Virus record (IMG/VR): IMGVR_UViG_3300046820_001062
Coordinates: 32,001 to 96,000 of that record
Length of the DNA: 64,000 nucleotides
Strand: one strand, 5' to 3'
DNA from: a virus
The notes below the pieces were generated by a model. It was not told the DNA's origin. It worked only from the letters and a program-made list of their open reading frames with translations, and did no database searches. Each line of letters opens with the position of its first letter. Position 1 is the first letter of the stretch. Shown here piece by piece: positions 17,053 through 35,279 of the stretch. The position numbers were made by a program, and so were the translations under genes.

Positions 17053-20000
17053 TTATTGTTCTTCCCAAGGAGTAGCGTTAAAAGATGCTGGTAAGGTTGA
17101 ACCACTCATGTATGCTTGTTGAAAATTATTTCTCCATGTAGGTGTTTGTTTTGCAGTTTGCAAATACATATTAGACACCTGATCTGCATATTTTCTTGCA
17201 CTTTCTTCTCCTCTTGTTCCAACAGCTTCATCATATGCTTGCTTCCATGCTGCATTTGCAGTTTGTGTCATTGCAGCTGGGTTATATCCAGTCCCAACAC
17301 CACCTCTTCCTGCACCATATGGATTTTGATATACGTCAGGAGCCATACCAGTTCCTTCATCACCAAACATTTGTCTACCTTGCCCAGAAAAATCTACATC
17401 ACCTAAAATAGGATCAATATAAACTTGCGGGAATAATACATTCTCCATTTGTTTTTTTCTGAACCAGTTAGTTGTTCCATTATTAAATGCTGCAATTTCT
17501 CTCCATTTCTTTTGTTGTAAAGCATTGTCATATTGTTGATTCATGGTTGCCATGTCTTCAACATATTTTTGACGTGCTGTTTCATTACCAACAATTTCTT
17601 GGTTTTGAACTTGTGCACTATTATTGTAAGCTTGATTTACAATTCCAATATTTGCAGCCTCTGTTGTATCTAAAACATTTGCAGCATTAGCAAATCCTTC
17701 TCCAGATGCACCAAGCATTGTTGCTAGTCCCACATTACCATCAGCAGTATTCTCTACTTGATTTTGGTATCTTGCCATCTGTTCTTGATTAGCAGCAAGT
17801 TTTCTTGTAGGATCTAATAAGTCATATCCAGGTGTAACTAAATCAATTTTACCTTGTGTAGGTTCATAACGATTTACTTGATCTGTTACTGTACCAACAT
17901 AGTTTACAATGTCTTGTAGCCACCAAGGTCCTTCTTTTTTAGGTTGCTTTTCAAAAGTTTTAGTAGGAGTACTAATACATTGACCATCAACAACACCTTT
18001 ATCTTTTGAAGCAGCACCTACAGCTTTAATATTTGAACCAGAAGGTGCAACAGGTTGTTCACCTGTTTTATGAGAAACAGAAACAACATTCTTAGTACCA
18101 TCTGTATACTCAACACAGAAATAAGCAACTTCTTGTCCAGGTTGTTCTGGTGGTTTTGGAGCATCAAAAAATCTAGGTACAGAATAAGTTACTTGTCCAA
18201 ACTTAGAATCTCTATAATAAGGATTGTCTTCTTTTTTACCTTGACCTAGTGGTGTAAAGTATGGAACACCAAACTGCTTCATTGATTTTTCATTGATAGC
18301 ATCTTGGAACCAACCTGAAGCTTTATCTCCAGTAGCTTTTCCTGCTTTTAAATCTTTTTGAAATTGAGCAAAACCTCCAGCATATTGAGCATCAATCCAG
18401 TCACCATGTCTTCTTTGAAAATCAGACCATTCTTGTGGAGATAAATCTCCTGACTGTCTTGCTGCTGCATTACCAGATGATAAATAAATACCAGTACCTT
18501 TTACATTAGGTTGATTAGCAAATGAACCAAAGTTTGTTTCTGTATATAATACATTAGGGGAACCAGCTAAAATCTTATTAATGTTGGTAGAACCATATTG
18601 TTCAAATTGAGTATCAGTTCTAGGACCAGACATAATGATTGTACCATTGGCATCTTTCATTATTTTAGTTGCTCCTTTGTAGAAAAGATATCTTACTTCA
18701 CCTTTATCATTTGTAACAGTACCAACAGCAATTTCTTTATTTGGATCAATACGTTGATTACCAGCAGCTTGTGCTTGTTGCTGTGTTCCAACAGTAGTAT
18801 TTAATGTACCTGGTTGTGTTTGTTGAGGAGTACCTTGAACTGTTCCAGCATCTTGATACTGATTCAGTGTAGAACCACCATATCTAAATGATTTAAAAAT
18901 ATCAGCGTCACTTTTACCATTTACATTTTGTACTGGTGCTTTTTTAACTGGTTGTTCTGTCTCAGTTTTTGTTTTTGGTGGTGTTTCAGGTTTGTTTCCT
19001 GACACTTGCTTATTTAAATTAGCAACACTTTCAGAATTTGTTACATCACCCGTATTGCCACTTGTGTCTACATATGTCCATCCAGTTGATGAATTAGCAT
19101 CTTTATAGTAAGTGTATTTATCTCTACCAGCAATTTTATATTCTGTTCCAGTTGGTTTTGCTTTTTCAGTAATTCCATTACCATAAGGACCATATGCATC
19201 TGTTGTATTACCTGTTGCTTGTGCTGCAGGTTTTTGATTCATCCAATCCTTTTTAAAAGTAGCTAAAGGAATTACCTTGTAACCTCCATAAGTATCTGCA
19301 TATGAACCAATATTTTTATCAGGGTCTGAAATTTGTTTTACCTGTACAACAGCTCCGTCACTATCTGTTAATTTATTTTGAGTGACTTTATACTTTTTGT
19401 TACCTACTGTATAAACATCTCCAATTTTTGGCATTGTAGGATCTACAACTGGTTGTGTTGAAGCTGGTGCTGTAGCACTGTAATTTAAAGTATAGTATTT
19501 ATTACCTTGACCTGGAAGTGATACTGCTTGATTCATCCAACCCAAGTTTTTTATACTTGTGTAATAGTCAGGATCAATTAAAGCTTGACCTGCGTTATAA
19601 CCCAAATCAAGTTTTCCATTTTTTTGCATTTCAAGATAATCCTTTAAAGGAAGTTCTGTTATGGTGTCGCCATTTGATAGTTTAATAGCTTTATCAAAAG
19701 TTACCCATTCATCAGAACCTGCACCTGCAGTATCCCAAAAACCTTCATAACGTGATTTAATTTTGTATTCTTTACCATCAATGTAAAACTTCTCACCTAC
19801 TTTACCACCATTTTGATAATTTCTAACAAAGCCACCACGTTTCATTTCTTCTTGTCCTTCAAGAACTTCATGAGCAACACCTTCACTTTTTTCCATACCA
19901 GGCATTTGTGCACCTTGTAAACCAGCCATTACAGATTCAGCAATAGCAGGAACACCATCAGGAAATCCTTTCATTGATTCCTGTACTAAAGCAAGCATAC

Positions 20001-20493
20001 CCAATTTTTGAGTATTCTTTTTTAGCATTTCAGCAGCAGAACGTTTTTGAATAGCATCAGTGTCATCACTTTTTAAGTCTTGAACATACTGATTAATTTG
20101 ATATTTCTTTGCAATTTCCGCAGGAGTGTATCCACCTTTCTTTTCCTTCAATCCAAAAATAGTCTCAAGAACTTCTTTGTCTTTGATTCTTAATTTTTTA
20201 GTATCAGAAAATATAAAGGAACCTTCAGGAATATTTACAGGCATACCACCTTTAGAGTGACGTTTTCCAACAAATGTAAATTGTTCTAGAAAACCATCTC
20301 TATTGATATCACCAACTACTGTTTCACCACCCTCTACTTCAATGTTTGCTTCTTCTTTAGGAACAGCACCCATAGTATTTTTAACATTACTTGTGCCTTC
20401 ACCAGAATTAGTGAAACTAACATTTCTACCAACTAAACTATAATCTTGTTGGTCTCCAGGTTTTGGTGCTTTTTTGATTCTAATCTTTTGCAT
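17053..20493 (-). CDS. Virion cargo protein (1146 aa) with N-terminal EVEGGE...G.RH..GG...FSD module
   Basis: The N-terminal NIEVEGGETV...VGKRHSKGGMPVNIPEGSFIFSD resembles a module I associate with crAss-like cargo proteins. Also has low-complexity P/T/Q linkers, xxxGG motifs and a Q/N-rich helical C-terminus. Confidence 0.62.
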   Translation of the reverse strand: MQKIRIKKAPKPGDQQDYSLVGRNVSFTNSGEGTSNVKNTMGAVPKEEANIEVEGGETVVGDINRDGFLEQFTFVGKRHSKGGMPVNIPEGSFIFSDTKKLRIKDKEVLETIFGLKEKKGGYTPAEIAKKYQINQYVQDLKSDDTDAIQKRSAAEMLKKNTQKLGMLALVQESMKGFPDGVPAIAESVMAGLQGAQMPGMEKSEGVAHEVLEGQEEMKRGGFVRNYQNGGKVGEKFYIDGKEYKIKSRYEGFWDTAGAGSDEWVTFDKAIKLSNGDTITELPLKDYLEMQKNGKLDLGYNAGQALIDPDYYTSIKNLGWMNQAVSLPGQGNKYYTLNYSATAPASTQPVVDPTMPKIGDVYTVGNKKYKVTQNKLTDSDGAVVQVKQISDPDKNIGSYADTYGGYKVIPLATFKKDWMNQKPAAQATGNTTDAYGPYGNGITEKAKPTGTEYKIAGRDKYTYYKDANSSTGWTYVDTSGNTGDVTNSESVANLNKQVSGNKPETPPKTKTETEQPVKKAPVQNVNGKSDADIFKSFRYGGSTLNQYQDAGTVQGTPQQTQPGTLNTTVGTQQQAQAAGNQRIDPNKEIAVGTVTNDKGEVRYLFYKGATKIMKDANGTIIMSGPRTDTQFEQYGSTNINKILAGSPNVLYTETNFGSFANQPNVKGTGIYLSSGNAAARQSGDLSPQEWSDFQRRHGDWIDAQYAGGFAQFQKDLKAGKATGDKASGWFQDAINEKSMKQFGVPYFTPLGQGKKEDNPYYRDSKFGQVTYSVPRFFDAPKPPEQPGQEVAYFCVEYTDGTKNVVSVSHKTGEQPVAPSGSNIKAVGAASKDKGVVDGQCISTPTKTFEKQPKKEGPWWLQDIVNYVGTVTDQVNRYEPTQGKIDLVTPGYDLLDPTRKLAANQEQMARYQNQVENTADGNVGLATMLGASGEGFANAANVLDTTEAANIGIVNQAYNNSAQVQNQEIVGNETARQKYVEDMATMNQQYDNALQQKKWREIAAFNNGTTNWFRKKQMENVLFPQVYIDPILGDVDFSGQGRQMFGDEGTGMAPDVYQNPYGAGRGGVGTGYNPAAMTQTANAAWKQAYDEAVGTRGEESARKYADQVSNMYLQTAKQTPTWRNNFQQAYMSGSTLPASFNATPWEEQ

Positions 20494-20599: not shown

Positions 20600-23500
20600 T
20601 TAGTCAAGATATTCTATCTCTCCTCCCATTGCAAGAATGCGCTTAATCTCTTCTTCATCAGCATAAAACTCACCGCCTTCAGCATAGTGTCTAGTTGCTG
20701 GAATGAAAGGAATTAAACCACCATATCTAGCAGATGACATCTTAGTTCCAAAGTCTTGAATAGGGGTATTGGCAACTAAACCAAAATTAGAAGCAGGTCC
20801 TGCGTTTAATGTGTAATTACCAAAAGGATTAATAGCATTTTGAGGATTGTATCTGTTCATTGTGTTGCCAATTTCCTTCAATCTTTGTTCATATTCTTTT
20901 TGATAATCTTTAGCACCAAGTACTTGATTAACCATTCCTAATCCAGCAAGTGCATTATTAGCAGCAACAATACCTGCAGTATCACCACGTTTTGTTTGAG
21001 TAAATCCATTTGCTGTTGGTGAAGTAGTTCCAGGTTGTGCATTACCACCAGGTGTTTGAGCTGTTTCTACACCTCCCACACTTGTAGCTGTTGCAGGTGT
21101 GTTTGCAGCTTTAAAGCCAGCAAGATACTGCTGATAATCATTCATATCTCTACCTTCTTCACCCATAAGACCTCTACCATTTTGAGCCATCCATTCATCA
21201 TATGTTAATGGTGTATCACCACCATCTTGATATCTACGCATAGTACCACCATATCTAGCTAAATTCTCATAAGAAGGACCAGATGGATATCCACCATCAA
21301 AATCACCAGGACCCATAGGACCTGAAGGAATCATGTTATCTTTTCTTCTTTTCTCATTAAGAGGAGAATCCTGATACATTTCAGGAGATGACCAATCTTT
21401 CATAATAGCATCTTGTTTTTCTTTTCTTGCTTGTATTACATCTTGAAGTTTACCTGATTCTTGTGTTTCAGGGTTTACAACATATTCTGTGGTCTTTGGT
21501 TTTGCAAACAACTTCTCATAACCAAGAACTGCACCAGATAATCCAGCAGCAGCGCCAGCAATGCCTTTTACTGTACCAAGCAAACCTTTGTTAGGTAAAG
21601 CCCAAACCATTGATCTTGGATCTCCAAGTGAATTTGCTGCAGCCAAGCCTCTGTTCCAAGAATTATTCTTTAATGAATTAAGAGTATGTGATTCAGTTAC
21701 ATCAGTTCTTTGATCTCCTGCTGTATATGTATCATAATCATATGCTCCACCATCTTGCATTTTAGTTTTAGCCATTTCTAAAAACTTTTGCAAATCATAC
21801 TTAACACCTTCACGTTCAAAATCAGCCATCATGTTTTTAGCAATTTTTTGCCTGTTCTGTGGATCATTAACTTGTGTCAAGATATTTGCAATTCCTTCTA
21901 CCATTTCAACATCGTTTTCACCACCTTCTGCCCATGTACCAAAACGTTTATGCCAGTATAATGGACTGAATGGATCTTTTGCTTTTGCAGAATCTCTTCC
22001 ACCCATTCTATCCCAGAATCTGTCTTTGCGTTTCTCAGAACCATGTTGTTTAAAATCTTGCATTCCTTTCCATCCGCCATGCACCACTTTATACTGATCA
22101 CCTTTCTTTGCAAGAACCATCCATTTTTTACCAGGACGTGTTGACTGTTTTTTAACACCAACTTTTGTAAAGCCCATATTCTTATAGCGTGAAGGAATAG
22201 TTCCTCCTTCTGCCATTTCATAAAGTTGACCACCAAGTTCTTTTGCAAAGTTTCTAGCAAAGTTTGCTTTCTTAACCATTTCAGGTGAGTACTCTTCTTT
22301 ATTATTTAAAATATGTTCAGCAGCTTCTTGCACAGACATTCCCATTTTAGTTGCTTGTGCTTTAAATGTACCTTTTTTTCTAGGGTTTATTTTAATACCA
22401 CCATATTTCATTTCATCATCTGACTCTAATAATTCAGAAGAAGTATCTTCAATGTCTTCTGTATCTAAAGGAACATCTTCTTCTTCCATATCAGATTCTG
22501 CAATATCATTCATTGCTGATTGAATTATTCCTTGTCCTTGTTCTTCTGACAAACCTTGTTCCATTAACATCTTAAGAATATCATCAGGATTAGTTCCACC
22601 TTCTAACATCATGGAGATTTCTCCTAATGCATCATCAATATTTCCTGTCTTTTGTGATTCTTCAGATTCTTGTTGTTGAGGTTGCATTTCTCCACCATAT
22701 TGTTTTACATAGAAACCACCATCTGGTGCAGGCGCCCATGATTCACCACTTGCTAAAAATTCTTGATAGTTTGCAGGATTATTAGGATTACCAGAAGTAG
22801 CTACAGGTTTTCTTACTTGTGCAGCAATCTCTTGTTTCTTTCTAGCTAACATTGCCTCATCAAAAGCTTGTTGTTGTTGTGCTGTTGCGTTATCATAGTT
22901 TACAAACTTTTTAAGATTATCTGCTTGAGGTCCTGCAAAGTTTCTATTTGCAGATGCAAAATCAGAACCATAATCAGTTCTTACACCATTAATCTCAGTA
23001 CTAACTTTTGGTACCATTTGATTAAGAGTTTTTAATCCTAAGAATCCATCTACTCTAGAGATACCATTCTTAAAACTATTTGCTGTTTTAACACCCATTT
23101 GACCAGATGCAGTATTACCTGCAGCCATGTTTAAAAAGTAAGATTGATAGTCTTTTACTTTGTTACTATCAATTGCAGCATTAGGATTTTCTTGATTGTA
23201 TTTTTTAATCAATTCATATCCTAGTTTTTTATCATGATTGTATCTATCATCAGAAGCAGCACCACTTTTCTTTGCATACTTTACAAACTGATTCCAATTA
23301 TTAAGATCTTGTGGAGACAATGAATTTGTTTCAGGTTCTCCACCATATTCCATTTGACCACCACATTCCATACAACCACCATTCATCATTTCTGGAATAT
23401 AACCACCAAATGCATAATCACTTACTTCCATACCAAATTCTGCTTTTCTCCAGCTTCCACCTTTTTCTTTATACCATTTTGCAGCATAACCATTTGCGTA

Positions 23501-25132
23501 TGCAGAAGGATAGACATCATATTTAGATTTGGCAGCAGCCTTAGCTCTTGACCATAATTCAGGATTAGTAGGAACATTTCCTCCTTTTGCCATCATGTCT
23601 AGTTCATTATAATCTTTCATTGTAAAGTTGTTTTCTATTAAATTTTCTCCACCAAACTCATTTCTTTTATGATTATAGTCAATGCGTTTACTTGAAGTTT
23701 TTGATCTTTTAAATTTATCTTTTTCAGATTGACTTAATTCTGAAGCTGTTTTTGGTGTGTCACTGTTTACTCTTTTTGAAGGTCTACACGCAGGATAACC
23801 AGCACGTTTTTCTCCTTCTTGTCTTCCACACTCTTTTCCTGTTTTTACATCAATCCACTTCTCAGCAAACCATCTATCTAATCCACCATGTTGTCCTCCA
23901 TCTTTAGCGTAAGGACTAAATTGATTAGTTTCTTTTTTAGATATAGTATTTAACATGTCTACAATTTGTTTATCATTGTAAACATCTCTTAATTGTTCCA
24001 ATGGATCATACCCTGTTTTAATATGATCTTTATATTTTTTTAAAATTTCAAGTGTAACTTTTTGATTAAATGGATTATATAATCCTTGATTTTTTGCATT
24101 ATATCTAAAATTCAAAAGTCTAGCTCTTGTTTCTGTAGGATCAGCTACATAATTTTGAAACTCACTTAACTGTCTTTTTCCATCCTTACCATATGCATAG
24201 GTTTGTATTTTTTTCAAATCTGAATCTGGCATTAAATAACCAGATGCATCTGAAGCATGACCAAGTTCATGTACTAAAGTTTGATTAGCAGCATCTAAAT
24301 AAGACTCATCATGTAAATGTATATCATAATTATTTTTTGGAATAAGGGCTGCAATGCCTGCATACTTTTGAGAAGGTGCAAAAATATAACTGTTTAAACC
24401 AGTTTTACTAAACAAATCATTTGCACCTGTTAATTCATTTTTTCTTGTTGCAAAACCTGCCGTACCTGAATTTGGATCACTACTAGATTCTTTACTATCT
24501 AACTGTTTATTAAAGTTTTTAAATGTATGTACATTTACATTAGCTTGTTTAATTAAAGCGTTTCTGTCATTAATAATTTTATCAGCATATATGTAGTTTA
24601 TTCCAGAAGGATCATCTTTATCTACACTATCATATAACATTTGCTTACCCATGGCAGAGTTATTCCAATTGGTTAAAAACTGTCTTTCTGCAAATGCTTG
24701 ATTTGTTAATGGAGGCAGCATTCCTGCTTGTCTAAGTTTTCTTGTATCTGCATTTGGATTCAATGAGCTAGCACCACCATACTGCATTTTCCAATTAGAA
24801 GATGGTTGCTCTAATTCAGGTTGCATTGTATAATCAGTAGTTATTTCTGAACCTACAGGTAAATCTTGTGCAGCAACTAAATATCTTTGATTACCCTGTG
24901 CTATGCTAATAGCATTTGGTTCAAAAGAATGATTATGAAATTTTCCTATTTTACCAACAGGTTGTCCATTTGAATGAGCAAGTCCTATAACTTCACCTTC
25001 TCTTATGTTTTTATTTGTAAAAAGCCCTTTACCTTGAATTTTACTTTTATCAACAAAAACATTATTTTCTTCTTGAGCTTCTTGCGCCCTAGAAGAAATA
25101 AACTTCATCAATATTTTATTCTTATCATTCAT
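20600..25132 (-). CDS. Modular cargo polyprotein (1510 aa): SET domain, zincin-like domain, small basic modules, repeated xxxGG junctions
   Basis: SET motifs GKGLFT / FHNHSFEPN / EITTDY (aa ~25-101). HELGH at aa 288 with downstream ETRAR. About 18 (M/Y/W/A/K/L)-x-x-G-G motifs between modules. Start overlaps the muzzle stop (TAATG). Confidence 0.75.
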   Translation of the reverse strand: MNDKNKILMKFISSRAQEAQEENNVFVDKSKIQGKGLFTNKNIREGEVIGLAHSNGQPVGKIGKFHNHSFEPNAISIAQGNQRYLVAAQDLPVGSEITTDYTMQPELEQPSSNWKMQYGGASSLNPNADTRKLRQAGMLPPLTNQAFAERQFLTNWNNSAMGKQMLYDSVDKDDPSGINYIYADKIINDRNALIKQANVNVHTFKNFNKQLDSKESSSDPNSGTAGFATRKNELTGANDLFSKTGLNSYIFAPSQKYAGIAALIPKNNYDIHLHDESYLDAANQTLVHELGHASDASGYLMPDSDLKKIQTYAYGKDGKRQLSEFQNYVADPTETRARLLNFRYNAKNQGLYNPFNQKVTLEILKKYKDHIKTGYDPLEQLRDVYNDKQIVDMLNTISKKETNQFSPYAKDGGQHGGLDRWFAEKWIDVKTGKECGRQEGEKRAGYPACRPSKRVNSDTPKTASELSQSEKDKFKRSKTSSKRIDYNHKRNEFGGENLIENNFTMKDYNELDMMAKGGNVPTNPELWSRAKAAAKSKYDVYPSAYANGYAAKWYKEKGGSWRKAEFGMEVSDYAFGGYIPEMMNGGCMECGGQMEYGGEPETNSLSPQDLNNWNQFVKYAKKSGAASDDRYNHDKKLGYELIKKYNQENPNAAIDSNKVKDYQSYFLNMAAGNTASGQMGVKTANSFKNGISRVDGFLGLKTLNQMVPKVSTEINGVRTDYGSDFASANRNFAGPQADNLKKFVNYDNATAQQQQAFDEAMLARKKQEIAAQVRKPVATSGNPNNPANYQEFLASGESWAPAPDGGFYVKQYGGEMQPQQQESEESQKTGNIDDALGEISMMLEGGTNPDDILKMLMEQGLSEEQGQGIIQSAMNDIAESDMEEEDVPLDTEDIEDTSSELLESDDEMKYGGIKINPRKKGTFKAQATKMGMSVQEAAEHILNNKEEYSPEMVKKANFARNFAKELGGQLYEMAEGGTIPSRYKNMGFTKVGVKKQSTRPGKKWMVLAKKGDQYKVVHGGWKGMQDFKQHGSEKRKDRFWDRMGGRDSAKAKDPFSPLYWHKRFGTWAEGGENDVEMVEGIANILTQVNDPQNRQKIAKNMMADFEREGVKYDLQKFLEMAKTKMQDGGAYDYDTYTAGDQRTDVTESHTLNSLKNNSWNRGLAAANSLGDPRSMVWALPNKGLLGTVKGIAGAAAGLSGAVLGYEKLFAKPKTTEYVVNPETQESGKLQDVIQARKEKQDAIMKDWSSPEMYQDSPLNEKRRKDNMIPSGPMGPGDFDGGYPSGPSYENLARYGGTMRRYQDGGDTPLTYDEWMAQNGRGLMGEEGRDMNDYQQYLAGFKAANTPATATSVGGVETAQTPGGNAQPGTTSPTANGFTQTKRGDTAGIVAANNALAGLGMVNQVLGAKDYQKEYEQRLKEIGNTMNRYNPQNAINPFGNYTLNAGPASNFGLVANTPIQDFGTKMSSARYGGLIPFIPATRHYAEGGEFYADEEEIKRILAMGGEIEYLD

Positions 25133-28100
25133 TACCTTGAACTATTGAGATGTTTTGAATTTGTTAGTTTTAAAATCATTTTTTTATCACCACTTACATT
25201 CTTACGCAAGATTACTTTGTTACCATAGTGTCTAAACTTCTTATGTTCAGTAGGTGTCTTAAAGTAATTTACATAATCAGGATTAATTGTTCTTTCATAA
25301 CCTGAACATTTTGTAATCCACATAGGTGTGTCATTACCAGAAAACTCACCTCTATCTTTTGTAACATCCCAGAATTGATTAAATCTAAATCTATTTTCTT
25401 CTTTAGAATAAAGAATATCAATACCTGTTGTTGTTGCTTGTGGATAGTTTACTAAATCTAAAGGATTATTTTTACCTTTAAGTTTCAGTTTAAGTAATCC
25501 AGACATTTGCTCAGAGTTATGTATAATAGCTCTGTCAAAGTTTTCATCTAAGATATGATTAAAATCTTTACCATCATTGAAGAATTTATAAACGTCTAGT
25601 GTGTATTCAATACTTCTTAATGTAGTGATGTTATTAGGTGTTGTCACAGGGTATTCTACTTCCCATGGATAATCTACACCATAGTAGTTAGCAAAACTAT
25701 CCCAGCGATCATTGTGTTTCCAAAATCCTCTACCTTTAATTGTAAAGAAGTGTTCATGTGACGGCATCAACAAACTAGGTTTCCAATCATGGAAACTAAT
25801 CCATAACTTTTGTTTAGGATCATAACTGATAGTCCAACCACATGGTTTAAAACATTTAGGATCATCATAAGCACAAGGGCATTTGATAATTGTAGGCTTA
25901 TTTACAATAACTTCTAATTCACATATTGTACTTTGATCTCCTCTAACACTAATCAAACTATAAGTAGTAGTTGCTGTTGGTGTTACAATCATTGAATCTA
26001 CAGGGTTAACTGTATAATTACCAGGCATCAATGTAACTGAATCTGGATTACCTGTTACAGACCAAGTTAAATTGATTGATTCTCCTTCATTTATAACATA
26101 AGGAACAGAATCAAATGTGCACTCTAAAGTAACAGGAGGACATGGAACATTTAAAATTGTATCTGATATAATACTACCTACTATACCAGTTGCAGCTTGA
26201 CTTTTTGTACCACCTGTAGTATTTGCATAGATGTCATGAATTAAAGATATGGTAGGAGCAACTGATGGACTAGTTACACCAACACCTGTTGCAATTGGAA
26301 ATATTTTAATATCTGCTGCTGCAGCATTGTTTGCAATAGTCTGTGCATTAACATCGTCTTGACCAACAACATAGTAATCATCTGTACCAGATGGTCTAGC
26401 ATCTGTAATCATAATGATTAACTTAATAGCATCTGTCCTAAATGTACCTGCGTCACCATCAACTGCCATTTGAATACCAACATCTGTTGGTTCTGGTTCA
26501 TTACAACCATTACCTAAAGTTACTGCTTGTAATGCTGCATTAAAAGCTGTTATGTTATTAGCTGACATTGAATGCCTAACCACGTTGTCTAATGCACAAG
26601 TTTGATTTACAGTGATTAATCCAAATCTGTAATCATTGTTTGATTTTGTTACAGCATCTGCAGCAATGTTTGATATACTAGTTTTTAAGTTATTCAATAC
26701 ACCACCCATACTACCAGTAATATCTAACACAAAAACCAAATCTAATGGTGCAGTACAGAATACAGGTTCTTCAGCCATTAGCATCATAGCTGGTCTACCA
26801 GCAACAGATATTTCACCTAATGTTCCTTGTAATGATATTGATGGTGTTTCTCCGCATGAATACACAGGAGTAACAGAAATTTTATAATGTGAATCTAAGT
26901 TTAGGGTTTCACTTTGTGGAACAGAACCTGAAAAATAGTTTATAGTTGAAGGTATAGTATAAGTATTTGCAGGATAACTTAATGTTTCTCCTTTCATAAA
27001 TGTACTATAGGTATAGTCACCCATAAAGCTATCATAAGTTCCTAACCAAATCTGAATAAGATATTGCTGTGGATTTTCTTGATTTGATGCTAATGTGGGA
27101 TGACTCCAATCTACAGTAACAGTTCCATCTTCATTTAGCCCACCTACAGTCATAGATGTAATTTGTGTTGGTACACATTCAGAAGGAGTACTACCGCCAC
27201 CTGTAGTTCCACATATGTAATATGGTACACCAGATGGATCATCAAAATGTAAATCTGATCTCAAAGGAACGTAGTCTTTCTTAGTAAAGTATACTAATTC
27301 ATACTGAGGATCATAAATAGACTGTACACCAATACCTGCAACAGGGTTGTCATAAAGTGGATAATCAGGATATTGACGTAGTAACTCTGAAGGTAAGTTT
27401 TCTGCAAACCAGAATTTCATACCATTTCTAGATATCTCATCAAGACTGCCGGCATAATGCATAATTTTACCTGACTTCTGAGAAGCATAAAATAAACCAT
27501 GTGGAGTATTTACAGCTGATCTTGAAGAAATACATGCACCATATTCTAATGCGTCATCAGCATTAGTAAGACTTTGCATGTTTTGTTGGAATAATCCACC
27601 ATCACCAATTGTAATTTTAACACCACCTTTAGTCTGTAATTGATCAACACCTACAAATTGTGTAGGTTCTGCATTCTCAAATAATATTACAGCACCTGTG
27701 CCATTTAAAGATTTTATTGTGCTGATTTTTCCTCCAAAATCTTTATAGTTAAGTGGTAAAAAGTTTCTCCAGTTATCTCGTTTGAGACCTGACTGCTGTT
27801 GGAGAGAGTACACTCCACGTTTAGGGTAGTACTCAAAACATGTGCTATATATGGTTGGGTCATAGTCTCTTGGGAGAATTTGTCCCCAGGTAGCAAAGTT
27901 GTTGAACAGTTTGGATGTGCTAAGTGATAAGTCATACTTGTTATAAATTGGTTTGGTAATCAAATCTGATCTGAACATCAATTGCTCATCATTAAATGAA
28001 TTACCATATACATCATAGAACTTTTGAAAATCTTCCTCACCATAGTCTCTAAAAGCCATGTTAAGTTCAGACTCTGTGTAAAAATCTCTGATACCATTAT

Positions 28101-31100
28101 GAAATAAATATGCAAAACACTTTCTTAAAGTCCATGTACCAGTTCCACCAGCTCTGTCCATTCTATGAAAACTACTTGGTGTTGTAAAATTTAATTGTGG
28201 TACAATTCCCAAAAATCCTCCTAATGATATATTCATGTCAAAGTCTGTTGTATCAAACTTATCATAATCAATCCAATATCTTGGAGCAGGGCCATTTACA
28301 TAATTTCTATAATTGTACTCAGTAGTATTTGGCATGTCAAACATCCATGTGTTAAAGAACATGTATGGATTTTTTTCAGTGTATCTGTTAATATAGATAT
28401 CACCACCAAATATAACAGAAGTGTTATACTTTGTTATTAACTGAGGAGTTGTTGAATATATACATGAATCTGTTGGCAATTGAACAATAGAACTCAATTG
28501 ACCATACTGATTTTCAAAATCAACTTTTAATGCACCATAATAAGCAACAGTATTTGTTGTAATAGAATCTTTAACAGGATTAGAACGATCAATGCCACCA
28601 TCCTGAACTCTATGTTTTGTATTATCAGTAGTTGAAGAAACATCTGGTAAATCTGATGTTAACTTGACAGCTACATATTTGTTTCTATTTAGATTGTTAA
28701 TTCTATATGTGGCATCAAAATCATGAATACCTGAACCAATATATTTAGCTCCTGAATCTGCAACTTTTCTTCTAAAGGCTCTTGGTAAACCAGAAGGAAC
28801 AGATGAGTTAGAAACAGGTGAGTATGAATCATAAAAACCATGACTGTTATATTGAAGCATGTACTGTCTTTCTTTACCAAGTTTTCTAAAAATTTCTAAA
28901 ACTTGATCTGTACCTTGCCCCCAATAGTATGCTCCTGAAGCAATCATCACAGCAATACCTGCAATTGTTGTTGCCACACTACCAGATCCCCAAACACTCA
29001 ATGCACTTGTTGCTCCACCTAAAATAAGATCTCCTATTGCAGAAGCTGGTCCTGATTCTCTTGATGCTTCAGCGCCACCCAAATAAGCACCTGTACCTAG
29101 AGCTAATGCCCAAGGATCATTTTTTGCAGTGTATGTAGTTTTACCTACAGCTGCTACTAAAGCAATACCTAAACCAATAATTCCAGCAGTTACAAAAGCA
29201 CCATCTGTTAAGATTACATGTTTAGGATGTTTATGAGGATATTCAAACTTACCAATTACTTTACCTCTTTCCTCTGTGTATATTTTAACATAGTTTGAAC
29301 CAATGTATGGTTTAACAAAATTTGTTTCTACAGCATGAAATGATAAATAATTTCTCTTATGAGTATCTAATTTTGATGCAGATTCTACGCCAGATTGACT
29401 TCCTTTTCCTTCATCAAGAATAGAATAGTCATTACTTAAGAAGTTATCAGGTCTAATATCATTGTAAGGATAGTTTTGAAATAATCCTTTTCTACCAGTA
29501 CTACCTTGAATATCAAACTCAAACATGTTGTTAAATAAACCTTTAGCAACAATAGTTCTATTTCCTTCTCTTGAACCCCTTAATATCTCATAACCTACAA
29601 TATCTTTGATTGCTTTTAAATCCTCGTCAACTGGATGTTGTATGTTTGAAAATTGAACACCAAGATTATAAATATAATCACCACCTTGACTATGAATATG
29701 AATTGTTTCATTAGAAGGCATTTTGTGGTGTCTAATTGGTTTACCACATAGTGTACCCCATACTTCAGGTTTATCATCTGGATATTTTTCAGTTGATTCC
29801 CAGTATGCCATATCACCTTTAGCAATAATAACACCGCCATCTTTGGTTGTACCAGATGCTAAATATTTTGTAGCAGTATCATATACTTGCCAAACTTGAG
29901 TTTCGTTTGAATAAACAACATCTGATGTTGACACAGAAGCTGTATCAGCAGGAGTTGCTAATCTACCAGGAATATGAAAAGAAGCACTTCTTGCACCAGT
30001 TTTGTATACCCATCTAATAAAGAATGCATACACTTCATCACGCATGTATCCTGTAACATTACCGCCATTGTGATAATATGAAGAAGGATATTGTGCAGCA
30101 ACCCATTCTACTTTGATATCATTTGCTTGTTTCTGATAATTAAAATAAGGTTGAGTAGTTACCCCAGTTCTGATAAGATAGTTATTGACAGAGTGCATTT
30201 TCTCACTCTTTTCATAAACTACAGATTTTAAAGGTATTACTGCAAGTTCAACTGTTGGTAAACTTTGATTATATAAGTCAAGATGTACTGATGTTTGTCT
30301 AATTGAATAGTTACCAATTTTTTTAGCAATAGTTTGCTGATTAATTACAGCAATAACAACAAGTTCATATTCATCATAATCCTTGTCTAAGTTCTCTATT
30401 GTAATATCTAATGCACCACCTATTCCAGTATGATCCCACAATGCTTGTGGTTGACTTGGAATAGAATAGTCAGTAAGTCTTATTCCATTTTCAGAATAAG
30501 CTACAACAGCCATGTAACTACCATTATTTAACTGACCAGCTCCTTGAGCCTTTTTTACAGTAACGCAAGGTTGTGTTACAAGAGGATGTAATCTTATAGC
30601 ATCGCAATCTAGCTCTGTGGTATATTCAGGAATAAAACAATCCTCATCTTGTGATAAGTTGTTACCTGTAGTTTTATATGGAACCCTATCAAGATTTAAT
30701 ACTCTATCAGGATTTAAATTGTCTTGAAAATATGTTGAATAAGTACAGTCATAGTTTTCCTTTGTGACTGCAGTAATCAAATGTGTTTTTTTAAAACCAA
30801 GACATGGATCATTTACAACTTTTGTATATGAACAATCTCTTTCATCAAAGATACCTATCTCTGATGAAACATCATTTGTAGAGAATATAACCCAAGATGT
30901 TTTAGACTTGTGAGAAATACCAATAACATCATAAGTTGCGTTTACACAAAACTTATTAGAAGGTTCATTTCCTATGGAACCAGTCTCACCATAGTGAGCA
31001 TTGTTAATAGCATTTACCGCATTAGTCCAAAGACCTTCTGAAATGTAAATATCAGTATAGTCTTTGACCATACCTTTATTAAAGGCATTTGTCTTGGCAG

Positions 31101-31128
31101 CACTTGTATTTGTAAAATTCTCGCTCAT
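25132..31128 (-). CDS. Muzzle / tail stabilisation protein (P22 gp10-like position) with inserted FN3-like, VWA and Ig/PKD-like domains (1998 aa)
   Basis: Starts with NAFNKGMVKD, typical of tail-stabilisation beta-propeller proteins. Ends with WTISY...WISFHDW.P and FNQFWD. Lies after the ring/tubular genes and before the cargo genes as in crAss-like phages. VWA MIDAS-like DLVFVLDITGSMG at ~26742-26704. Confidence 0.8.
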   Translation of the reverse strand: MSENFTNTSAAKTNAFNKGMVKDYTDIYISEGLWTNAVNAINNAHYGETGSIGNEPSNKFCVNATYDVIGISHKSKTSWVIFSTNDVSSEIGIFDERDCSYTKVVNDPCLGFKKTHLITAVTKENYDCTYSTYFQDNLNPDRVLNLDRVPYKTTGNNLSQDEDCFIPEYTTELDCDAIRLHPLVTQPCVTVKKAQGAGQLNNGSYMAVVAYSENGIRLTDYSIPSQPQALWDHTGIGGALDITIENLDKDYDEYELVVIAVINQQTIAKKIGNYSIRQTSVHLDLYNQSLPTVELAVIPLKSVVYEKSEKMHSVNNYLIRTGVTTQPYFNYQKQANDIKVEWVAAQYPSSYYHNGGNVTGYMRDEVYAFFIRWVYKTGARSASFHIPGRLATPADTASVSTSDVVYSNETQVWQVYDTATKYLASGTTKDGGVIIAKGDMAYWESTEKYPDDKPEVWGTLCGKPIRHHKMPSNETIHIHSQGGDYIYNLGVQFSNIQHPVDEDLKAIKDIVGYEILRGSREGNRTIVAKGLFNNMFEFDIQGSTGRKGLFQNYPYNDIRPDNFLSNDYSILDEGKGSQSGVESASKLDTHKRNYLSFHAVETNFVKPYIGSNYVKIYTEERGKVIGKFEYPHKHPKHVILTDGAFVTAGIIGLGIALVAAVGKTTYTAKNDPWALALGTGAYLGGAEASRESGPASAIGDLILGGATSALSVWGSGSVATTIAGIAVMIASGAYYWGQGTDQVLEIFRKLGKERQYMLQYNSHGFYDSYSPVSNSSVPSGLPRAFRRKVADSGAKYIGSGIHDFDATYRINNLNRNKYVAVKLTSDLPDVSSTTDNTKHRVQDGGIDRSNPVKDSITTNTVAYYGALKVDFENQYGQLSSIVQLPTDSCIYSTTPQLITKYNTSVIFGGDIYINRYTEKNPYMFFNTWMFDMPNTTEYNYRNYVNGPAPRYWIDYDKFDTTDFDMNISLGGFLGIVPQLNFTTPSSFHRMDRAGGTGTWTLRKCFAYLFHNGIRDFYTESELNMAFRDYGEEDFQKFYDVYGNSFNDEQLMFRSDLITKPIYNKYDLSLSTSKLFNNFATWGQILPRDYDPTIYSTCFEYYPKRGVYSLQQQSGLKRDNWRNFLPLNYKDFGGKISTIKSLNGTGAVILFENAEPTQFVGVDQLQTKGGVKITIGDGGLFQQNMQSLTNADDALEYGACISSRSAVNTPHGLFYASQKSGKIMHYAGSLDEISRNGMKFWFAENLPSELLRQYPDYPLYDNPVAGIGVQSIYDPQYELVYFTKKDYVPLRSDLHFDDPSGVPYYICGTTGGGSTPSECVPTQITSMTVGGLNEDGTVTVDWSHPTLASNQENPQQYLIQIWLGTYDSFMGDYTYSTFMKGETLSYPANTYTIPSTINYFSGSVPQSETLNLDSHYKISVTPVYSCGETPSISLQGTLGEISVAGRPAMMLMAEEPVFCTAPLDLVFVLDITGSMGGVLNNLKTSISNIAADAVTKSNNDYRFGLITVNQTCALDNVVRHSMSANNITAFNAALQAVTLGNGCNEPEPTDVGIQMAVDGDAGTFRTDAIKLIIMITDARPSGTDDYYVVGQDDVNAQTIANNAAAADIKIFPIATGVGVTSPSVAPTISLIHDIYANTTGGTKSQAATGIVGSIISDTILNVPCPPVTLECTFDSVPYVINEGESINLTWSVTGNPDSVTLMPGNYTVNPVDSMIVTPTATTTYSLISVRGDQSTICELEVIVNKPTIIKCPCAYDDPKCFKPCGWTISYDPKQKLWISFHDWKPSLLMPSHEHFFTIKGRGFWKHNDRWDSFANYYGVDYPWEVEYPVTTPNNITTLRSIEYTLDVYKFFNDGKDFNHILDENFDRAIIHNSEQMSGLLKLKLKGKNNPLDLVNYPQATTTGIDILYSKEENRFRFNQFWDVTKDRGEFSGNDTPMWITKCSGYERTINPDYVNYFKTPTEHKKFRHYGNKVILRKNVSGDKKMILKLTNSKHLNSSR

Positions 31129-31499
31129 TACTCTTTGATGTTGTAATTTTTCTGACGTAATACTTTATAAATTGTCTCAGTCAAGTGACCAACTAACCAT
31201 GCAGTAGATTCTTCATCTGTGATGTTAATGTCAGTTAATATTCTAACTGCTAAATGGTATACCTCATGTGATATAAGATTGATTGTAAGTTTATCTTCTT
31301 CATATACAATGTAGTATTCTAAACCATTTTTACCAGGCATATCAAACACACATCCATAACTATCTGTAACATCAACTAATGACTTAGTTTTTTTATCAAT
31401 ATAGTCTTGCATATCCTGCATGCTTTCTACAACACGTAGATTTACTACTGCATCATAAATAGCAAGGTTTATTTTTTTTTTAAATATTTTTGCAGCCAT
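31128..31499 (-). CDS. Small HExxH metallopeptidase-like protein (123 aa)
   Basis: LISHEVYHL followed by DEESTAWLVGHL, a zincin-type HExxH plus downstream Glu. TAATG-coupled to both neighbours. Confidence 0.55.
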   Translation of the reverse strand: MAAKIFKKKINLAIYDAVVNLRVVESMQDMQDYIDKKTKSLVDVTDSYGCVFDMPGKNGLEYYIVYEEDKLTINLISHEVYHLAVRILTDINITDEESTAWLVGHLTETIYKVLRQKNYNIKE

Positions 31500-32599
31500 T
31501 AGATATTGCTCTTAAACATGTTATAGTAATTATGATACTGAGCTTTTCTATTTAACTCCCACGTTTTCTTTAGTTCTCTAAAGTCTGGTGTGTTGATAAA
31601 TGATAAAGCGTTGTTTCTAGCCACTCTTAGTTTTTGTTCTACTAATTGTAGATAGTTAATGACATTCTCTCCAGACATATATAAGTTTTCATATATTCTC
31701 TGTTTTAATGCATACTCATAAAATTCATTTACTAATGGATGTTCCATAACCAAAAGGTTACCTTTGTCATCCTCCATTAAACTTTGATAATTAATATATA
31801 CAACACCCTCATCAAAGTTTGTAACTAAAAATCCATTTTTGATATAAGCTACATTTGGATCATGACTATTCAAATTAAAACAATCAGCAGATACTGATTT
31901 GCTTTTTTCTATTCTTAAAGGAATCAAATGTGAATGCTCATATCTTCTTCCATTTAGATTATATGCTACAACTTTTTTACCACTTGCATCACTTACAATT
32001 TCAGCACTAGTTCCGCCACTTGTTGTAGCAATAGTGTTACCACCCATAACTACAAGTCTAACTTCTGTAATTACTTCATTTGATTCAGAAATTAACTCAA
32101 AACTATTATTGTCTAGATGATGAATTTCAAATGACAATAAGTTTCCATCCACGCTTAATGCTTGAACTAATATATTTGCTGTACCAATATTGTGGTTAAT
32201 AACGTTGATTCCAGGAAGAATATTTCTAATAACGCTGTATTGTCTTACATTACTACCTCCTGTTAACTTGAACATTTTTTGTGCAAGAAGAACACCTTCT
32301 AACATTCCCTCTGTATATGTCTTAGCTCTTTCTTGTAAATAGTATGAGTTATGGCCTTCACATACAAGAGCAAAGTTTAAAACATAAAAGTCTTGTGGTA
32401 ATTTACCTTTACCTTTATGTATCTCAATTGCTTTTGAACGTGACTGATTAACTTTAAGACCTAACTCATAGTTTACTTTCATAGCAACTTTGATTAGTTG
32501 CTGTGGATCTATTGAACTTTCTAAGTCATAAGTTCGCATGTCTATCTTGACACTCTCAAGTAGTTCATCAAATTCTTTATATTGTACTTCAGTCAACAT
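31499..32599 (-). CDS. Tail ring / tubular protein (366 aa)
   Basis: Position before the muzzle. Contains GKGKLPQDF and YIKNGFLVTNFDEGVVYINYQSL...DDKGNLLV, consistent with crAss-like ring proteins. Contains an internal ~100-aa beta-rich insertion. Confidence 0.62.
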   Translation of the reverse strand: MLTEVQYKEFDELLESVKIDMRTYDLESSIDPQQLIKVAMKVNYELGLKVNQSRSKAIEIHKGKGKLPQDFYVLNFALVCEGHNSYYLQERAKTYTEGMLEGVLLAQKMFKLTGGSNVRQYSVIRNILPGINVINHNIGTANILVQALSVDGNLLSFEIHHLDNNSFELISESNEVITEVRLVVMGGNTIATTSGGTSAEIVSDASGKKVVAYNLNGRRYEHSHLIPLRIEKSKSVSADCFNLNSHDPNVAYIKNGFLVTNFDEGVVYINYQSLMEDDKGNLLVMEHPLVNEFYEYALKQRIYENLYMSGENVINYLQLVEQKLRVARNNALSFINTPDFRELKKTWELNRKAQYHNYYNMFKSNI

Positions 32600-32613: not shown

Positions 32614-33285
32614 TTATCTAGCTGTGTGTTTAAGATCTTGTGCAGCATCTTGTGGAACTTGCATCATCAATCCTAAATCTCTCATAGCTAATTGTTCAAT
32701 TTCTGGGAATAAATGTTCAGGTACATTGTAAGGACTATCTTGAACATACTGACAGTCATCAGCTGGGTCACAGTTATACTTAGAGATATCTCCTTCAAAT
32801 ACACCTTCAATTCTTACAGCATCCCACTCTAAATTTGGAAAATATAAGTAACCATCTAAGTACCAATAGTATTTTTTCTTATTGTACTTAAATGTTTTTT
32901 GCCTTTCCATTTGTTGATATGTAGTAGGATATGTACTTGTTAAGTCTTCTGATAAATCTAATGAGGTAACTGCTCTAATCAAAGGTCCCCAGTAACCATC
33001 ATAAAGTTCAGGTAACTTATCTTTTGTTCTTTTAAAATAACAACCTGTATCAATACCAACACATTGAGCTTGTGCTCTATCTACTTCAATCAACTCTACA
33101 AAATCTAGAGTCTGAAACACAGATTGATATTTCATGATGCGATTCAAGTTATCTTGTCTACGCATCAATAATTTTGCATGTTTATTAACAAGAGAATACA
33201 AGAAACGGTCAGTCAGGAAAGCATCCTGCTTAACAGCTTTTACTTGGTTACGCACCCTTGATAATACTTCACCTATTGTAATCAT
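32614..33285 (-). CDS. Tail ring/adaptor protein (223 aa)
   Basis: Helical N-terminus (TIGEVLSRVRNQVK...LTDRFLY) and YYWYLDGYLYFPN...VRIEGVFE, typical of crAss-like ring proteins. Confidence 0.6.
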   Translation of the reverse strand: MITIGEVLSRVRNQVKAVKQDAFLTDRFLYSLVNKHAKLLMRRQDNLNRIMKYQSVFQTLDFVELIEVDRAQAQCVGIDTGCYFKRTKDKLPELYDGYWGPLIRAVTSLDLSEDLTSTYPTTYQQMERQKTFKYNKKKYYWYLDGYLYFPNLEWDAVRIEGVFEGDISKYNCDPADDCQYVQDSPYNVPEHLFPEIEQLAMRDLGLMMQVPQDAAQDLKHTAR

Positions 33286-33932: not shown

Positions 33933-35279
33933 TTAGACTGTATATGTAAATTCACTTATCAATCCTTTGCTTGAATCATGAATGTGCATAATAGCTGAAC
34001 GCGTATTTCCCACATATTTGTTGTGGTAATGGTAATAATCAGAAGAAGTTAAGGCAGGTATAATTCTAGTAACAAAGCCATTTTGTTCATTTTCAGTCAC
34101 AAACTGTGTTGTTTTACGTCCATGATAATGACCTGTGTAAAGCATTCTATATTTAGAAGATCCCCATTCATTTGGAAATTCAACAGCATATACTAATGGA
34201 TTATTCTTAGCAGTCACGTCCCCATGTTCAAAACAAAGCATGTTTAAACCATAAGTTAATACCTTTCTCTCTGCATAGGTAACATTAAAATCTATATCTT
34301 CCCAAGTCTTAAATGCTTGAGAAACAGCATGTAGCAAATGGAATGAACTAAGTCTGTCATGGTTACCTGGAATAAACAATACCTCAAGTTTCTCACAAAA
34401 CTGTTTAGCTGTTCCAATTGCCTGGCAGATACCATCAAAAGCTTTAATGTAAGCTTCAGTTGCCATCTCTGAGTTCTCTACTGGAGTTCCCTTTGTAGTT
34501 GTACCACCAAAGGTGTCCATATTAAGTGTATCTGGGCCTATTACAAAGACTATCTTCTCTAAGACATAGTTTCTATTAGCTTTGTCAATTAAGTAGCTTA
34601 CAGAGTCATTTAAGATCTCTGCCATGTCTTCGTTCCCTACTTTACCAAAGTGAAGATCCTGTAAAGAAAGAACCCCACAAACTTTTTCTTGAGAACTTGT
34701 GTTCTGCCAAAAAGCTGCAGGGTCTAATGGAGTTATTTGTGGAACCTGATATGTTTCAAGTAACTCTAAAAATGTACTTTGTATTTTTTCTTCTTGTGGT
34801 ACTCTGCTTACTAGCGCAGATACTAACCACTTGGTTCCTTTTTCTTTATTCCAGTATTGAGATAGTTTCCACTTCTTTGTGTCTATCTTCAGTAATGCAA
34901 TAATTTCTTCAGCACTACGCGGCTCTGTTGCAGACAGGCCAACAATCTTACTGGTTCCTGATTCCAAGTCTTCATGAATTTCAATTCTCTTAGAATCTTC
35001 TTCTTTATTGTGCCATCTGTCTTTAGCATCAATTCCTAGTTGTTGTTCTAGTTCAAATAAAATTTCTTCATTTGATGCAACATCTGATTTTTTTGTTAAC
35101 TTTGCTTCAACCATTTTAATGATGACAGAATCTATTTTTGAACCTGCTTCATTTAAAACTTTGATTACTTCTTCTTTTATCTTTTGGTAATAAGATAGTG
35201 AAATACCTAGTCTTTGAGCTTCAGCTTCTGCTGACTTTTTTCTTTTTAAGCTATGGTATACTGATGATATAATATTCAT
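33933..35279 (-). CDS. Calcineurin-like metallophosphoesterase with N-terminal HTH-like region (448 aa)
   Basis: All five motifs are present: QDLHFG, GPDTLNMD, PGNHD, EHGD, GHYH. Confidence 0.85.
   Translation of the reverse strand: MNIISSVYHSLKRKKSAEAEAQRLGISLSYYQKIKEEVIKVLNEAGSKIDSVIIKMVEAKLTKKSDVASNEEILFELEQQLGIDAKDRWHNKEEDSKRIEIHEDLESGTSKIVGLSATEPRSAEEIIALLKIDTKKWKLSQYWNKEKGTKWLVSALVSRVPQEEKIQSTFLELLETYQVPQITPLDPAAFWQNTSSQEKVCGVLSLQDLHFGKVGNEDMAEILNDSVSYLIDKANRNYVLEKIVFVIGPDTLNMDTFGGTTTKGTPVENSEMATEAYIKAFDGICQAIGTAKQFCEKLEVLFIPGNHDRLSSFHLLHAVSQAFKTWEDIDFNVTYAERKVLTYGLNMLCFEHGDVTAKNNPLVYAVEFPNEWGSSKYRMLYTGHYHGRKTTQFVTENEQNGFVTRIIPALTSSDYYHYHNKYVGNTRSAIMHIHDSSKGLISEFTYTV

Follow-up and report, generated by a model that had tools for sequence, protein, structure and literature searches.

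A virus-encoded SET-domain enzyme has been described in vSET, which PBCV-1 packages in its virion and which methylates host H3K27 early in infection; at 119 aa it has been called the smallest histone methyltransferase (reviewed in PMC7019647). Polyvalent proteins are large virion-associated polypeptides in which unrelated enzymatic and binding domains are strung together and shuffled among relatives, and in which HExxH zincin-like modules, proposed to process polypeptides, are common (Iyer, Burroughs, Anand, de Souza, and Aravind, 2017; PMC5512222). In PhicrAss001, gp45 is cargo protein C1, which lies partly inside the tail, poised for ejection (PMC10172136). Here, we describe a reduced SET domain (mini-SET) at the N-terminus of P0001, a 1510-aa protein encoded in a 64,000-nucleotide window (positions 32,001 to 96,000 of IMG/VR virus record IMGVR_UViG_3300046820_001062, which is 123.7 kb long and 98% complete).

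Mini-SET resembles vSET (PBCV-1 A612L; PDB 3KMA/1N3J) in being viral, in its very small core and in lacking a post-SET zinc cluster, but over the same span it has about 23 residues fewer (80 profile positions, where vSET has 103 residues), and its YRxQPELEQP flank is not a feature of vSET. Whereas vSET is a free protein of a eukaryotic virus with histone H3 as its target, mini-SET lies within a 1510-aa phage protein, and the bacterial host has no histones. KMT2/MLL-type SET domains (MLL1; PDB 7U5V, 2W5Y) are the best sequence and structural match and share the GxG, NHS and ELxxDY motifs; MLL1, however, depends on WRAD partners and possesses a Cys-rich post-SET and about 35 residues of SET-I insert, and mini-SET shows none of these. 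P0001 is like the polyvalent proteins in being multi-domain and shuffled, and one of its homologues has ART-PolyVal (PF18760); the text of PMC5512222 makes no mention of a SET domain and describes neither xxxGG-jointed cassettes nor the crassvirus cargo slot. P0001 is also like gp45 of PhicrAss001 in that its gene stands directly after the muzzle gene and before RNA polymerase-related giant proteins, but no SET or other enzyme domain has been reported for gp45.

Enzymes known to be delivered by phage virions include RNA polymerases, ADP-ribosyltransferases, cell-wall hydrolases and nucleases. A literature search found no characterised virion-delivered protein-lysine methyltransferase for any phage and no paper that describes or tests the mini-SET family, 'SET domain protein' appearing only in annotation tables. 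SET enzymes, packaged vSET, polyvalent cargo proteins and the database label 'SET-containing' on relatives were already known; what is new is a virus-only subfamily in which I-SET is deleted, with a C-terminal signature of its own, that forms a GG-jointed accessory cassette of a crassvirus cargo protein and has a phosphoesterase partner elsewhere. The reading that we prefer, with a probability of roughly 0.55, is that mini-SET is an accessory S-adenosylmethionine (SAM)-dependent lysine methyltransferase cassette of a polyvalent cargo protein that the crassvirus ejects.

Identification of a SET domain in P0001

The protein, its SET core and the motifs within it map to the window as follows.

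20600..25132, minus strand: P0001, multi-cassette protein in cargo position, 1510 aa (open reading frame [ORF] and translation; Pfam SET, DUF5872 and DUF5754)
24803..25060, minus strand: mini-SET core, V25-P110, 86 aa (Pfam SET, AlphaFold2 model, VIA-align superposition)
25025..25033, minus strand: GxG motif G34-K-G36, SET-N SAM-binding turn (aligned to MLL1 G-R-G)
24926..24937, minus strand: NHS motif H66-N67-H68-S69 (aligned to NHS of MLL1 and vSET)
24830..24847, minus strand: ELxxDY motif E96-I-T-T-D-Y101, with the predicted catalytic tyrosine (aligned to MLL1 ELTYDY)
24803..24832, minus strand: family-specific C-terminal flank Y-(R/T)-x-Q-P-E-L-E-Q-P, which occupies the post-SET place (family alignment)

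An earlier, sequence-only reading of this DNA had recognised three SET motifs within about 80 aa at the N-terminus of a protein. All three, SKIQGKGLFT (aa 30-39; 25016-25045), FHNHSFEPN (aa 65-73; 24914-24940) and QDLPVGSEITTDY (aa 89-101; 24830-24868), do lie in one shared minus-strand frame, that of ORF 20600..25132. The ATG of P0001 overlaps the stop codon of the upstream muzzle gene by one base (TAATG), so the SET module is truly N-terminal, with a leader of only about 22 aa ahead of it. MQYGG, which had been said to follow the module directly, is present at aa 116-120 but begins 14 residues past Y101. The (R/K)FxNHS motif of SET domains is found as K64-F-H-N67-H68-S69. At the Phe/Tyr-switch position the mini-SET family has Thr or Val, like vSET, whose counterpart of ELxxDY is 'EITISY'.

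Profile searches returned the same assignment. Pfam SET (PF00856; cut-off 22.4 bits) matched aa 1-123 with 38.6 bits (E 1.6e-9) and full-length P0001 with 30.9 bits, its alignment to P0001 being confined to profile positions 55-104, the C-terminal half of the model; an NCBIfam search of the mini-SET protein matched no family. With the single sequence, phmmer against PDB matched KMT2/MLL SET domains in two pieces and also matched vSET. A family alignment of 40 sequences (A1) served both as a profile and as AlphaFold2 input; as a profile against PDB it matched the MLL1 SET domain at 2e-11 and vSET, end to end, at 2e-8.

Fold, reduced architecture and conservation

The AlphaFold2 model built from A1 has block-mean confidence scores (pLDDT) of 89-95 across aa 31-100, with a drop past residue 100. 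When this model was compared with PDB by Foldseek, the best match was vSET (E 3e-7, TM 0.66) and all other top matches were SET domains; VIA-align superposed it on the MLL1 SET domain with Z 13.9 (rmsd 1.4 Å over 86 residues, 33% identity) and on vSET with Z 12.2. The SET match that the sequence-only reading had staked its claim on was thus returned by Pfam, PDB-profile and fold searches alike, and it is virtually certain that aa 25-110 are a genuine SET homologue with a SET fold.

That reading had also called the module minimal, lacking both I-SET and post-SET, and this description holds. Between the two MLL1 pieces the A1 profile has 14 positions and MLL1 itself 47 residues, which shows that the I-SET insert has been lost; what is left of it in the model is a five-residue turn, S54-N-G-Q-P58. 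The length of I-SET differs among SET families, so its loss marks a variant rather than non-membership. A Cys-rich post-SET zinc cluster is likewise absent, aa 1-123 of P0001 containing no cysteine at all, but such a cluster is not universal: vSET, SET7/9 and SET8 are also without one.

Conservation across the family is concentrated on particular positions. Among 151 representatives that are 40-70% identical, G36, N67, H68, E96, T98, Y101, Q104, L107 and Q109 are invariant, and the wider set of invariant or near-invariant residues comprises S30, I32, G34, G36, G50, H53, G63, H66, N67, H68, R83, E96, T98 and Y101. G34 is kept in at least 90% of the 40 sequences of A1 and in 125 of the 151. The acidic flank Q104-P-E-L-E-Q-P110, in which P105 and P110 are nearly invariant, is as conserved as the core residues and has no counterpart in aligned canonical SET sequences. 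GxG, NH and the tyrosine of ELxxDY, mapped via alignments, are the SAM-binding and catalytic residues of characterised SET domains. Natural variants of the cassette (the zincin-less contigs and protein P0153, described below) differ at ten nucleotides, eight of them synonymous; this mostly synonymous variation, together with the residue invariance, we read as selection for function.

A module so reduced might instead be a catalytically inert remnant of the SET fold, retained for binding, spacing or packaging. The elements that usually shape the substrate groove and seal the cofactor pocket, namely I-SET and post-SET, are indeed missing, and the fall in pLDDT past residue 100 points the same way; yet the invariant residues are exactly the SAM-binding and catalytic ones (GxG, N-H and the tyrosine of ELxxDY), the module also exists as free-standing genes of 100-101 aa, and vSET is active without I-SET-rich or post-SET elements (PMC7019647). 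We regard an inert remnant as quite improbable and a catalytically competent mini-SET as likely. A predicted homodimer (two copies of aa 18-116, with SAM) scored 0.02 against a mark of 0.42 and gave no answer on a vSET-like dimer.

Distribution of the mini-SET family and its fusions outside crass-like phages

An exhaustive HMMER search of 1.84 billion representatives recovered 797 clusters with a threshold of E ≤ 1e-3 and 266 with one of E ≤ 1e-10. Most of the best 150 carry the module at the N-terminus of a protein of 500-3300 aa, and some carry it internally or at the C-terminus; free-standing genes, of about 100-101 aa, are occasional. IMG/VR yielded 101 confirmed matches, and prokaryotic genomes a single hit among 185,579 species, on a 4.4-kb contig of a metagenome-assembled genome; the family is almost entirely viral. 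Small SET proteins associated with prokaryotes, such as chlamydial NUE and Methanosarcina Go1-SET, methylate chromatin or nucleoid proteins. These bacterial and archaeal proteins are cellular, whereas the mini-SET family is almost absent from cellular genomes. Relatives are automatically named 'SET domain-containing protein [uncultured virus / Caudovirales phage]' in UniProt.

The GenBank phage collection holds no close mini-SET homologue; three weak matches (E 1e-3 to 5e-3) came from a spring-water podovirus, Pelagibacter phage Kolga and phage zth2-2. In the podovirus (MW202744.1; L002:5521-6282) the SET domain is at the C-terminus of a 253-aa protein whose gene stands between a 'stabilization protein' and more virion genes, the slot of P22-like ejection proteins, and is a second, independent SET in ejection-protein position. 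On another crass-like contig a free-standing 101-aa mini-SET gene (L169:885-1190) directly follows CrAss_Ring_1, so mini-SET also occurs as a gene of its own inside the tail module.

Locus counts given here for IMG/VR refer to its best 80 loci. About 45 of these are not crass-like and carry mini-SET at about aa 480-530 of proteins of 650-750 aa, between a DHH/DHHA1 phosphoesterase part and a conserved C-terminal domain of about 120 aa (for example, L025, L028, L033, L039, L057, L058, L064, L068, L071, L075, and L084, the last at L084:8564-10630). The N-terminal part shows the DHH/DHHA1 motifs DLDG, VDFAHG, DHHD and GGHK, with Pfam DHH scores below threshold; a fold search gave weak matches, of modest confidence, to RecJ/Cdc45, pAp phosphatase, PggH and GdpP, and by sequence the part had no meaningful match in PDB. 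In L075 the DHH-SET gene adjoins genes for a DNA methyltransferase and a thymidylate synthase, not structural genes. A further arrangement is a 446-aa protein (L006:1870-3207, L007, L008) with a C-terminal mini-SET behind an N-terminus that resembles Pol-beta nucleotidyltransferases (NTases; phrog_36119, with weak Pfam Polbeta/NTP_transf_2). DHH-SET fusions outside structural neighbourhoods imply a role for the module beyond the virion as well, and so speak for a target in the cytoplasm.

These recurrent fusions with nucleotide phosphoesterases also lend something to the idea that mini-SET is an active methyltransferase of another target, for which candidates are histidine, the residue modified by SETD3, and a small or non-protein amine. 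Loss of I-SET leaves the active site open, and by the alignments the invariant His53 coincides with, or neighbours, the SET-N tyrosine lining the MLL1 lysine channel. Characterised SET enzymes nonetheless all act on protein side chains, nearly all of them on lysine, and nothing in the data indicates a specific alternative substrate; we therefore consider a non-lysine target very improbable and retain protein lysine as the substrate in the reading that we prefer.

The cargo slot downstream of the muzzle gene

Three genes upstream of P0001 define its position.

25132..31128, minus strand: muzzle protein, 1998 aa, with a VWA insert at aa 1463-1615 (phrog_37948; BLASTP; VWA domain)
31499-32599, minus strand: CrAss_Ring_1 (Pfam PF24228, 38.7 bits)
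32614-33285, minus strand: CrAss_Ring_2 (Pfam PF25702, 80.2 bits)

They belong to one long minus-strand late operon, in the order TerL, portal, major capsid protein (MCP), CrAss_Ring_2, CrAss_Ring_1, a 123-aa gene, muzzle and P0001, after which come minus-strand ORFs of 1146, 874, 1474 and >3309 aa. BLASTP matched the muzzle protein to gp44 of PhicrAss001 (3e-4) and gp042 of Cellulophaga phage phi4:1 (1e-51), and the >3309-aa giant ORF to gp47 of PhicrAss001 (1.6e-7). About 35 of the 80 IMG/VR loci have the order ring 2, ring 1, muzzle, SET protein, 1146-aa homologue and 874-aa homologue, and a Logan contig has the identical order.

The sequence-only reading had described P0001 as a virion cargo protein. 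Its place in the cargo slot behind the rings and muzzle stands: gp45 is the next gene after the muzzle gene gp44 in PhicrAss001, and in phi4:1 the four genes past the muzzle homologue encode virion proteins proven by tandem mass spectrometry. Moreover, mini-SET family members share polypeptides with SLT, phage lysozyme, GH24, Amidase_2, VanY, YkuD, ART-PolyVal (PF18760), DUF5872 and DUF5754, the repertoire of partners expected of ejected internal virion proteins and polyvalent proteins (PMC5512222). This indirect evidence makes it likely that P0001 is packaged in the virion.

Cassette organisation of P0001

Outside the SET core, P0001 is divided as follows.

25067..25132, minus strand: N-terminal leader, aa 1-22, 'ILMKFIS' helix (shared by orthologues with or without SET)
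24773..24790, minus strand: cassette joint K-M-Q-Y-G-G, aa 115-120 (GG at this spacing in most family members)
23894..24772, minus strand: optional HELGH cassette, putative zincin, aa 121-413, 293 aa (HExxH motif at aa 288-292, 24257-24271)
23648..23893, minus strand: DUF5872-type basic cassette, which starts QHGGLDRWF (Pfam DUF5872, 71.8 bits)
20603..22702, minus strand: conserved C-terminal scaffold, aa 811-1510 (61-71% identical in L086, L087 and L088)

SET, the HExxH cassette, DUF5872, DUF5754 and the scaffold are thus found in one chain, as is typical of a polyvalent protein. The leader, predicted with low confidence to form a helix at residues 3-15, is kept as M..N.ILMKFIS in L086:6883, L087:6319, L088:7299, L099:6322 and L004:10001 whichever cassette comes next, and a leader of about 20 aa so conserved may be a packaging or anchoring signal. 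The scaffold has one hydrophobic segment rich in Gly and Ala (aa 1184-1202).

Cassettes are swapped among L004, L086, L087, L088 and P0153. The nearest relatives, L086, L087 and L088, with 71-89% identity in the muzzle protein, retain leader and scaffold, lack both SET and the HExxH cassette, and carry other short cassettes instead, such as a zinc ribbon and a 'MMPGGEYLFGG' element. SET was found in this gene in none of about 25 near relatives, a count that can be interpreted only in the near clade, since tandem c1146 paralogues put distant cargo genes beyond the 10-kb flank. L004 has leader, SET, MKSGG and then DUF5872. In the NCBI protein P0153 (1217 aa, 95% identical) and in contigs of two other freshwater studies, SET is kept and aa 121-413 are absent in frame, the zincin-less junction falling exactly between ...xxxGG and QHGG so that SET is joined directly to the DUF5872 cassette (runs X3 and X8; P0153). 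Borders of cassettes in relatives fall right after GG, and P0001 contains 13 copies of [MYWF]xxGG, where shuffled sequences give 1.7 +/- 1.3; the motif is not enriched in other late proteins (c1146, 3 against 1.5; MCP, 2 against 0.7; the rest, 0-2).

The HELGH cassette had no match in Pfam or PHROG or, by sequence, in PDB, where the lone hit (E 0.18), to a superantigen, appears to be fortuitous; it aligned weakly (E 0.15) with the HELNH region of phi4:1 gp041, there being otherwise no similarity between P0001 and gp041.

Several cassettes of P0001 are very Lys-rich (15-21% Lys), the gene belongs to the late structural operon, and SAM is available only in a cytoplasm, all of which would fit a SET module that acts in the producing cell before packaging and methylates the phage's own proteins (Lys-rich cassettes, other cargo or capsid). 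Close relatives, however, have no SET yet retain the scaffold and the Lys-rich DUF5872-type cassettes, and the DHH-SET and NTase-SET fusions of other phages are wholly without Lys-rich cassettes. The sporadic presence of SET resembles that of an accessory effector rather than a maturation enzyme, and pre-packaging action is in our judgement unlikely.

Proposed mode of action

In the mechanism that accompanies our preferred reading, an ejected accessory methyltransferase, P0001 would be synthesised late, would enter the cargo space of capsid or tail by means of its scaffold, and on ejection would precede the DNA. With SAM at hand in the cytoplasm, the SET module would then methylate lysines of host proteins (nucleoid, translation or defence), favouring take-over, perhaps once cleavage at the GG joint had released it. 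Action of the SET module in a newly infected cell has, in our estimate, about an even chance. Neither a phage-encoded SAM synthetase nor an MTA/SAH (methylthioadenosine/S-adenosylhomocysteine) nucleosidase was found in the phage genome, which is uninformative.

Several observations weigh against this mechanism. With I-SET gone, the usual peptide groove lacks a wall, and mini-SET by itself may be unable to function. The SET cassette is dispensable in the nearest relatives. DHH fusions stand in non-structural neighbourhoods, and virion delivery is not intrinsic to the family. P0001 and gp45 of PhicrAss001 have no BLASTP match at E ≤ 0.01, their equivalence being one of gene position. Finally, a search of the phage genome for the GG-specific proteases Peptidase_C5 (adenain), C48 (Ulp1) and C39 found none. 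Divergent proteases or HExxH modules could cut at the GG joint, and the HExxH cassette next to SET is dispensable in natural variants; release by cleavage there is plausible but unsupported.

A broader proposal, which we offer tentatively, is that about 86 residues of SET core suffice on their own for a virus-only lysine methyltransferase that, injected or fused to a phosphoesterase, hits a bacterial nucleoid, translation or immunity protein; if so, protein-lysine methylation would join, as a new class, the chemistries by which phages take over their hosts or counter defences. An active mini-SET would define the minimal catalytic SET unit and provide a tractable 100-aa enzyme for probing bacterial lysine methylation in infection. 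The leader, GG-jointed modules and scaffold, varying among L004, L086-L088, P0153 and the zincin-less contigs, amount to a natural experiment on the diversification of injected crassvirus cargo.

Environment, host and neighbouring features

Parts of the window are present in sequencing runs of about nine studies beyond its possible source, nearly all of them freshwater or aquatic, and six of these include a run with half or more of the sampled words. The best cultured matches of the muzzle protein are from a Leptolyngbya phage, an epsilon-type gut crassvirus, and Cellulophaga and Flavobacterium phages. With matches so mixed the host phylum is not to be assumed, and a Bacteroidota host is a guess. 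The top cultured match is the cyanophage Leptolyngbya phage Lbo-JY46, ahead of the Cellulophaga and Flavobacterium phages.

Next to P0001, an element at 19924-20493 (minus strand) of the window is tandem-duplicated in more distant lineages (L125-L164) and weakly matches the phi4:1 virion protein gp040 (1e-3 to 1e-4). Inside the tail-gene block, at 33933-35279 (minus strand), lies a gene for a 448-aa exonuclease of DNA-repair type (phrog_704, 1.7e-47).

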